A DNA stretch of 810 nucleotides. Origin: Escherichia coli. GTDB taxonomy: Bacteria; Pseudomonadota; Gammaproteobacteria; Enterobacterales; Enterobacteriaceae. The stretch lies in the NCBI RefSeq assembly GCF_003334785.1, contig NZ_QOWV01000072.1, one strand, 5' to 3'. A program made the position numbers and the translations under genes. The notes beneath the pieces were generated by a model, which was not told the DNA's origin, searched no databases, and saw only the letters and a program-made list of their open reading frames with translations. Of this stretch, positions 1 to 810 are shown piece after piece (positions within the stretch are counted from its first letter, which is position 1; every line of letters begins with the position of its first letter).

Positions 1-26
1 TGTAGATTCAATCTGTCAATGCAACA
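1..26. repeat. Terminal inverted repeat of IS30 (the end proximal to the transposase 3' end, conventionally IRR), about 26 bp
   Basis: Sequence tgtagattcaatctgtcaatgcaaca at the extreme window start. This matches my recollection of the IS30 inverted repeat (begins TGTAGATTCAAT, 26 bp, imperfect match to the other end). The partner repeat is outside the window, so the inverted-repeat relationship cannot be confirmed from this sequence alone. The transposase stop codon (8-10) lies inside this repeat. Confidence 0.7.
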
Positions 27-810
27 CCCCTTTCAATTATCTCTTTCGGTGTTTTGAACTTCAGTGTCTTTCTCGGTCTGTTGTTTAGCTGAGCAGCAAC
101 CAGATCTAGTTCATGTTGAGTATATTGGGCAAGACATGTCTTTTTAGGAAAGTACTGCCGAATTAGCCCATTTGTGTTCTCATTTGTTCCCCGCTGCCAA
201 GGACTCTGAGGATCGCAGAAGTAAACTTTAACGCCGGTGCTGACAGTAAATTCTAGATGTCTGGCCAGTTCCATTCCTCTGTCCCATGTCAGTGATTTTC
301 TGAGTTCTGACGGTAAACTCAGGAATTTGTCGGTAAGAGCCTGATTTACTGAGACAGAATCTTTGCCCCTGAGTCTAAGGATGATCGTATAACGTGATTT
401 TCGGTCTACAAGTGTGGCTATATGAGAGTTTTTTGTACCTGAGACTAAATCGCCCTCCCAATGCCCCAGAGAGCGTCTGTTATCGATATTTCGGGAACGT
501 TCGTGAATTGGTGTTCCGTTCACTATGTTAATCGTACCTCTTTCGCCTTTGCGGGTATGACGCCTGCCATGGCGAAGGCTATGCGACCGTCGCAGATGCT
601 GTATATTCAGGTGGTGTAGCGCTTCACGGCTACGAAAGTACAGCGTTTTATAAATTGTCTCAGGTGATATTCGCAGCGTTTTTTGACGTGGTTTTGTTCG
701 CCTTAACCATCCTGATATTTGCTCTGGAGACCATTTCATCTCCAGCTTTTCCAGAACAAGCTTTCGCAATGGTAAATTTTGATCCAGTAAGCACGGTTTT
801 GGCCTTTTCG
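8..810 (-). CDS. insI: IS30-family DDE transposase, 5'-partial (N-terminus beyond window end). Stop codon TGA at plus 8-10 is included. About 266 C-terminal codons are present.
   Basis: Six-frame track ORF 8..769 (253 aa plus stop). I translated the minus strand from 810 and the frame stays open for 13 more codons upstream of the track's first codon (K R P K P C L L D Q N L P, then L-R-K-L-V-L-E-K...). The track's 'M' is therefore an internal TTG (Leu) at 767-769, not the real start. Family motifs verified on the sequence: HWEGD (D at plus 449-451, gat on minus), WDRG (D at 281-283, gac on minus), NENTNG (E at 179-181, gag on minus), with exactly 33 residues between the second D and the E. 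The protein C-terminus ...KEIIERGVALTD-stop was confirmed by manual reverse-complement translation of bases 1-60. Gene symbol insI is the E. coli K-12 name for IS30 transposase, assigned from memory. Confidence 0.93.
   Translation of the reverse strand, partial: KRPKPCLLDQNLPLRKLVLEKLEMKWSPEQISGWLRRTKPRQKTLRISPETIYKTLYFRSREALHHLNIQHLRRSHSLRHGRRHTRKGERGTINIVNGTPIHERSRNIDNRRSLGHWEGDLVSGTKNSHIATLVDRKSRYTIILRLRGKDSVSVNQALTDKFLSLPSELRKSLTWDRGMELARHLEFTVSTGVKVYFCDPQSPWQRGTNENTNGLIRQYFPKKTCLAQYTQHELDLVAAQLNNRPRKTLKFKTPKEIIERGVALTD
179..451 (-). other. DDE catalytic core of the transposase (RNase H-like fold), spanning the three predicted catalytic residues
   Basis: Catalytic-candidate codons located directly on the sequence: D in LGHWEGD (plus 449-451), D in LTWDRG (plus 281-283), E in RGTNENTNG (plus 179-181). 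Spacing D-55-D-33-E in the translated protein, with the D(33)E spacing characteristic of the IS30 family. No frameshifts or stops interrupt the domain. Confidence 0.8.

Follow-up and report, generated by a model that had tools for sequence, protein, structure and literature searches.

The stretch of DNA analysed here (referred to below as the window) is 810 nucleotides long, and all of these nucleotides match the insertion sequence IS30 at 100% identity. A megablast search of 5426 complete E. coli genomes placed this sequence at 8726 positions in 3795 of them, on chromosomes as well as plasmids (median 2, maximum 23 per genome), and all of these copies bear the annotation 'IS30-like element IS30 family transposase'. 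Of the 1221-bp element, the window takes up 810 bp on the right-hand (IRR-proximal) side, about two-thirds of the whole, and shows them as the reverse complement; it is IS30 proper, read in the reverse orientation. The multi-copy nature of the element, which the sequence-only reading of this DNA had raised, is evident from the above counts. The features that lie in the window are as follows.

Bases 1 to 26, minus strand: right terminal inverted repeat (IRR) of IS30, with base 1 outermost; the identity begins there, and 23 of the 26 bases match the left repeat (IRL).
Bases 8 to 10, minus strand: stop codon TGA of the transposase, inside the IRR and 7 nt from the tip, as given by translation and by annotated CDS ends.
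Bases 8 to 810, minus strand: 3' part of the IS30 transposase gene, comprising the 266 C-terminal codons of 383 and the stop.
Bases 14 to 19, minus strand: outward-facing -35 hexamer TTGACA, inside the IRR and 13 nt from the tip, as read from the sequence.
Bases 200 to 475, minus strand: catalytic DDE (integrase-core 'rve') domain, Pfam PF00665, residues 112-203 of the 266-aa translation, E = 4.8e-14.
Bases 462 to 492, plus strand: approximate place of the published IS30 antisense-RNA promoter (element bases 730-760), taken from the literature only (PMC9330008).
Bases 802 to 810, no strand: right edge of the window, inside IS30, base 810 being element base 412 in the standard orientation.

Upon translation, the sole long frame of the window is on the minus strand, and it is open from the right edge up to the TGA at bases 10-8. 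The 266-residue translation, which represents only the C-terminal part of the 383-aa full-length IS30 ORF, scored 252.3 bits (cut-off 80) against the NCBIfam model NF033563 (IS30 family transposase), covering profile positions 41-267 of 267. Based on this match and that to the Pfam rve domain (whose nucleotide coordinates were converted by hand from the residue positions), the encoded protein is a DDE transposase of the IS30 type. The window does not hold the complete 1221-bp element with both of its ends and an intact transposase gene, as it halts at element base 412. No match was found in an Rfam scan of the window and no site in simple promoter and terminator scans of it; a simple consensus scan of the window likewise gave no promoter-like site in the region of the antisense-RNA promoter. 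In the phage collection, IS30 is represented by one 280-nt fragment, in one phage.

The two ends of IS30, viz. TGTAGATTCAATCTGTCAATGCAACA (window end, IRR) and TGTAGATTCAATTGGTCAACGCAACA (IRL), agree at 23 of 26 bases and are unrelated from base 27 onwards. Within the window there is no inverted repeat that involves bases 1-26, and as the partner of the IRR lies beyond base 810, the repeat becomes visible only with full-length copies; the sequence-only reading drew on prior knowledge here, and did so correctly. Terminal inverted repeats of about 20-30 bp, which are a trait of the IS30 family along with short target duplications of 2-3 bp, are thus present, with the IRR in window bases 1-26 and the IRL in full-length copies; for IS30 itself, 26-bp inverted repeats and a target-site duplication of 2 bp are reported (PMC9333248). 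Ten annotated loci were aligned, and each has a 1221-bp element whose identity to the window begins at base 1, with flanks that vary from site to site. The same boundary is seen when IRR ends are pooled from all fetched loci (genomes, metagenomes and viral contigs), with extra ends gathered by means of the first 30 bases of the window (120 metagenome contigs, 36 stretches from the viral collection and 1 genome contig). Of these IRR ends, 175 had 30 nt or more of flank and gave 55 distinct left flanks, and the similarity halts exactly at position 1. The most frequent base at positions -1, -2 and -3 of these flanks reaches frequencies of only 0.49, 0.49 and 0.35, respectively, and due to this the homology does not extend upstream of position 1. 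Further, 21 of 37 distinct flank pairs have an identical dinucleotide directly next to bases 1 and 1221, where a chance rate of about 1 in 16 would give about 2 pairs, and a 2-bp duplication that lies flush with base 1 fixes the boundary of the element to a single base. The proposal that position 1 is not the true end, and that the element or its homology continues leftward, is hence contradicted both by the 55 distinct flanks, which lack conservation at -1 to -3, and by these flush duplications, and we consider it to have almost no chance of being right. Base 1 is the true outermost base of IS30. The sequence-only reading had taken position 1 as the first base of an IS30 inverted repeat with no host flank on that side, had expected a 2-bp target duplication, and had named homology running on before position 1 as the result that would overturn it; the aligned loci, the flanks diverging directly before base 1, the published value together with the 21 flank pairs, and the failure to find such homology in the 55 distinct flanks agree with it on each of these points.

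The flanks of the other copies also show where IS30 tends to insert. Across the population, the IRR flank has a preference for T at -13, AA at -11/-10, AA at -8/-7 and GC at -5/-4, and this is in accord with the published behaviour of IS30, which targets nearly palindromic hot spots (PMC9333248). The site seen most often is TATTAAAAAAGGCTAC|IS30, between the orfA and orfB fragments of elements of the IS3 family (IS911-like). Most of the sampled IS30 copies are located a few bases after an A6G run of IS3-family elements (in L001-L010 at about 1480-1500 and about 2722-2740, and in many metagenome loci). This run resembles the frameshift site of those elements, and the half-site of the IS30 hot spot would seem to coincide with their slippery run. 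One example of such nesting is provided by K-12, in whose CP4-6 prophage IS30A lies within IS911A. The other 16 of the 37 distinct flank pairs of full-length IS30 show no 2-bp duplication and bring together a small set of recurring half-sites in varying combinations; such pairs are what recombination or IS30-mediated rearrangement between copies would be expected to yield, suggesting that exchange or rearrangement is frequent. As the 810-nt sequence is identical at thousands of sites, the insertion site of the window, its 2-bp duplication and any effect on an adjacent gene are not recoverable from the window itself, and the earlier statement that the insertion context lies outside of it holds.

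If the left edge of the window is the tip of the element, then a second boundary is required at base 810, since a whole collapsed IS30 would be 1221 bp long. The sequence-only reading was right in placing the left edge at the IS tip, but it did not notice that the right edge lies inside IS30. A sequence with a boundary at this very base was found in one contig, viz. an E. coli contig from a gut metagenome (L012), where IS30 bases 1-810 are followed directly by the IS1 end GGTAATGACTCC. The sequence that comes directly after IS30 base 810 in this contig (region 10040-10980 of L012) is GGTAATGACTCCAACTT, the end of an IS1, and intact IS30 reads CCATTCTG beyond the same base. Relative to the window, the IS30 part of the contig has a 1-nt deletion, and the flank of the contig is E. 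coli DNA from a yeeS-cbtA-yeeU island. Bases 802-810 would presumably be the target duplication of IS1, if it has the usual 9 bp; the contig itself stops inside IS1.

The IS30(810)|IS1 junction was seen only in this contig. It is absent from the 5426 complete E. coli genomes, where three matches with full coverage each turned out to consist of two separate pieces, and it is likewise absent from the 5000 best-scoring plasmid records and from viral contigs. The 120-aa N-terminal fragment that is predicted for an IS1-interrupted copy was not on record. With a 200-nt probe across 810|811, the best place was contiguous in 3879 of 3947 records from complete genomes, and the sampled rows of these matches showed no copy truncated at 810. 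About 26 distinct internal breakpoints of IS30 are found among the fetched loci, and the chance that one of them equals 810 is about 2%, which is small but not negligible.

Several other truncated and nested copies were observed. A recurrent truncated IS30 ends at window 760/761 (L020, L053, L061, L166, L167, L170-L172 and L175) and abuts a sequence ending in ...ACGCTTAC, with IS66-family genes upstream; this neighbour would appear to be the terminus of an IS66-family element. The 243-aa C-terminal ORF left by these copies is found in 995 blocks of public assemblies, a count which takes in, besides these, full-length copies whose frame is disrupted by small changes and copies broken at other points, and a 253-aa truncated-ORF product is found in 2 contigs. 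These two products were considered as a route to base 810, and they led instead to breakpoints at 760/761, 767-771 and 806-808. In one locus, an IS1203/IS629-like element is nested at window 806-808 with a 3-bp duplication (L174, 1446-3739), and in another, an IS3-family element is nested in IS30 at 767-771 (L164, 1213-3769).

These observations bear on the possibility that the window was cut along the annotation of a partial IS30, from the IRR tip up to the interrupting IS, in which case it would represent a real one-ended remnant whose flank is present in the source. In the IS1-interrupted contig both edges are indeed element boundaries (IS30 tip and IS1 junction), and nested or truncated IS30 copies are common, with breakpoints at 760/761, 767-771, 806-808 and 810. 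However, if the piece had come from a gene-based annotation (PGAP), its first base would be base 8, where the CDS including its stop ends, and not base 1, and the IS30(810)|IS1 junction is absent from the annotated collections that were searched (complete genomes and the 5000 best-scoring plasmid records). We regard a cut along an annotation as a tentative possibility.

The manner in which contigs end in and around IS30 provides another line of evidence. None of the approximately 160 contigs found by pattern ends at the IS30 tip, the smallest flank being 55 nt. About 60 of them end inside IS30, 20 of these at 53-55 nt from the tip, and other contig ends lie 75-77, 89-99 and 125-127 nt inside the element, which are typical assembler k or overlap lengths. 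As the ends match assembler overlap lengths, contigs with a unique flank run k bases into the repeat, and only a collapsed node begins at the tip. The earlier suggestion that a sequence edge at an IS end is typical of a contig break holds for the collapsed repeat node, which does start at the tip, but not for contigs bearing a flank, which end about k bases inside. In public drafts, many contigs also end about 800-834 nt from the tip, running through the IRR into unique flank (L134-L163), and these deep ends do not fit the simple picture of k bases into the repeat. We also considered whether base 810 is a hot spot for contig breaks. With contig ends counted from the partial transposase products that mark end positions, in blocks of public assemblies, the marker product for ends at 808-810 was found in 47 blocks, compared to 49 (799-801) and 64 (832-834) for the controls, and the idea of a hot spot was rejected.

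A scan of one genome per species with the IRR 30-mer returned one contig (L011; GenBank JAIJJM010000048.1, 1-9853), which is filed as 'MAG: Collinsella sp.'. It stops 99 nt into IS30, and the 3 kb beside the element match E. coli chromosomes at 100% identity; it looks like an E. coli contig that had been binned in error with an actinobacterial MAG. The scan did not return the E. coli type strain ATCC 11775, although this strain has the IRR sequence (L002); either another genome represents the species there or the scan was not exhaustive.

The assembly behaviour expected for two such copies was modelled with a toy de Bruijn assembly, into which one intact IS30 (L006) was entered together with a copy similar to the IS1-interrupted one, the IS30 part of which was replaced by the window sequence because of the 1-nt deletion in L012. 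At k = 31, 55, 77 and 127, this assembly yields a unitig that is identical to the 810-nt window. The presence of an intact and an IS1-interrupted copy is thus a sufficient origin for the window; it should not be interpreted as proof that the window originated in this way. The same toy model bears on the suggestion that only the left edge is a repeat boundary, the right edge being an arbitrary end of a contig or window with no feature at 810. Public contigs do end anywhere inside IS30, as indicated by the 49, 47 and 64 blocks noted above for ends at 799-801, 808-810 and 832-834. However, a contig that lies flush with a repeat boundary is a node of the graph, which in the toy assembly normally ends at another branch, and a branch at exactly 810 is provided by the IS1-interrupted contig; an arbitrary right edge is, in our view, improbable. 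If instead two IS30 copies of one genome differed at base 811, the base difference could split a collapsed node, and a toy assembly of two intact copies differing by one base indeed gives a node that ends just before the difference, at 884. Among 72 ungapped full-length copies (33 distinct sequences), however, no variant is present at 811, the nearest ones being at 800 and 825, and a split of this kind appears very unlikely.

Based on these considerations, the window is the IRR-proximal 810 bp of IS30 with base 1 as its true end, and its edges most likely come from a stretch that is common to several copies, a reading to which we assign a probability of roughly 0.85. According to this reading, the coincidence of the sequence edge with base 1 would reflect how the piece was delimited and not a biological event. 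Several IS30 copies of one data set would have this piece in common; its left limit would be the IS tip, at which the differing flanks part, and its right limit the point after base 810 at which the copies themselves would diverge, an IS1 insertion being documented there in L012. A de Bruijn assembler would output this 810-nt node, and an element annotation of an IS1-truncated copy would give the same coordinates. The origin in an annotation and the origin as an assembly node amount to the same biology.

It may also be, although we hold this only tentatively, that the window is a genuine one-ended remnant of IS30, consisting of the IRR and the 3' 810 bp and cut off by IS1 as in L012. If this is true, the remnant would have no transposase of its own, and its IRR would be a preferred target of intact IS30 copies (IR-targeting), which would create IRL-IRR junctions with a strong junction promoter and seed local rearrangements. 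The window edge at the IS tip is in itself an ordinary outcome of cutting a repeated element from an assembly or an annotation, and not a biological oddity. When a fragment begins flush with an IS tip and breaks off at an internal breakpoint, it is to be recognised as repeat-bounded, and its context belongs to the source assembly and not to the window. Similarly, the signature of a contig break at an IS has two forms, as unique-flank contigs stop k bases inside the element and the collapsed node starts at the tip.

The position of base 1 is also of significance for the transposition of the element. IS30 transposes by a copy-out-paste-in mechanism, in which the transposase nicks one end and joins it to the other via a 2-base bridge, and replication then gives a minicircle or an (IS30)2 dimer, with IRL and IRR abutted and 2 bp between them (PMC9333248). 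Base 1 accordingly corresponds to the 3' end that is cleaved by the DDE transposase and joined to the other end via the 2-bp bridge (copy-out), and the IS30 end is then pasted into the target with a 2-bp stagger. When the IRR and IRL are joined on paper with two bases between them (IRR-NN-IRL), the outward -35 hexamer gives the arrangement TTGACA-17 nt-TAGATT. This arrangement is the IRL-IRR junction promoter of IS30, known as Pjunc (PMC9333248), and it is listed among the fusion promoters with an outward -35 (PMC9330008); a promoter activity of the -35 region in the IRR of the window is predicted from this literature. For a single insertion, the -10 partner must come from the flank, and for this reason activation of a neighbouring gene cannot be assessed from the window, as the sequence-only reading had also stated.

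All of the biology described here is already known and nothing in it departs from published IS30 biology: the ends, the 2-bp duplication and the target preferences of IS30 have, like the element itself, been on record for decades. With its outward TTGACA located 13 nt from the tip, the IRR of the window is similar to the right ends of other copy-out-paste-in elements that carry an outward -35 there, viz. IS911, IS2, IS21 and IS256 and, in the IS30 family, ISApl1 and ISAba125. As in those elements, a full promoter would result only if the ends abut or if the flank supplies a suitable -10 (PMC9330008), and there is no difference in principle between the window and any of these six elements, the -10 partner of the window lying outside of it. 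The nesting of IS30 in IS911 and other IS3-family elements is the context of most of the sampled natural copies, the window itself having no flank. Lastly, in comparison with the 1221-bp IS30 of E. coli K-12, which is the founding member of the IS30 family, the window is without the IRL and the promoter, and also without codons 1-117, where the N-terminal DNA-binding part is encoded, but it has the same 810 bases, the same IRR, the same C-terminus of the transposase and the same stop codon within the IRR.
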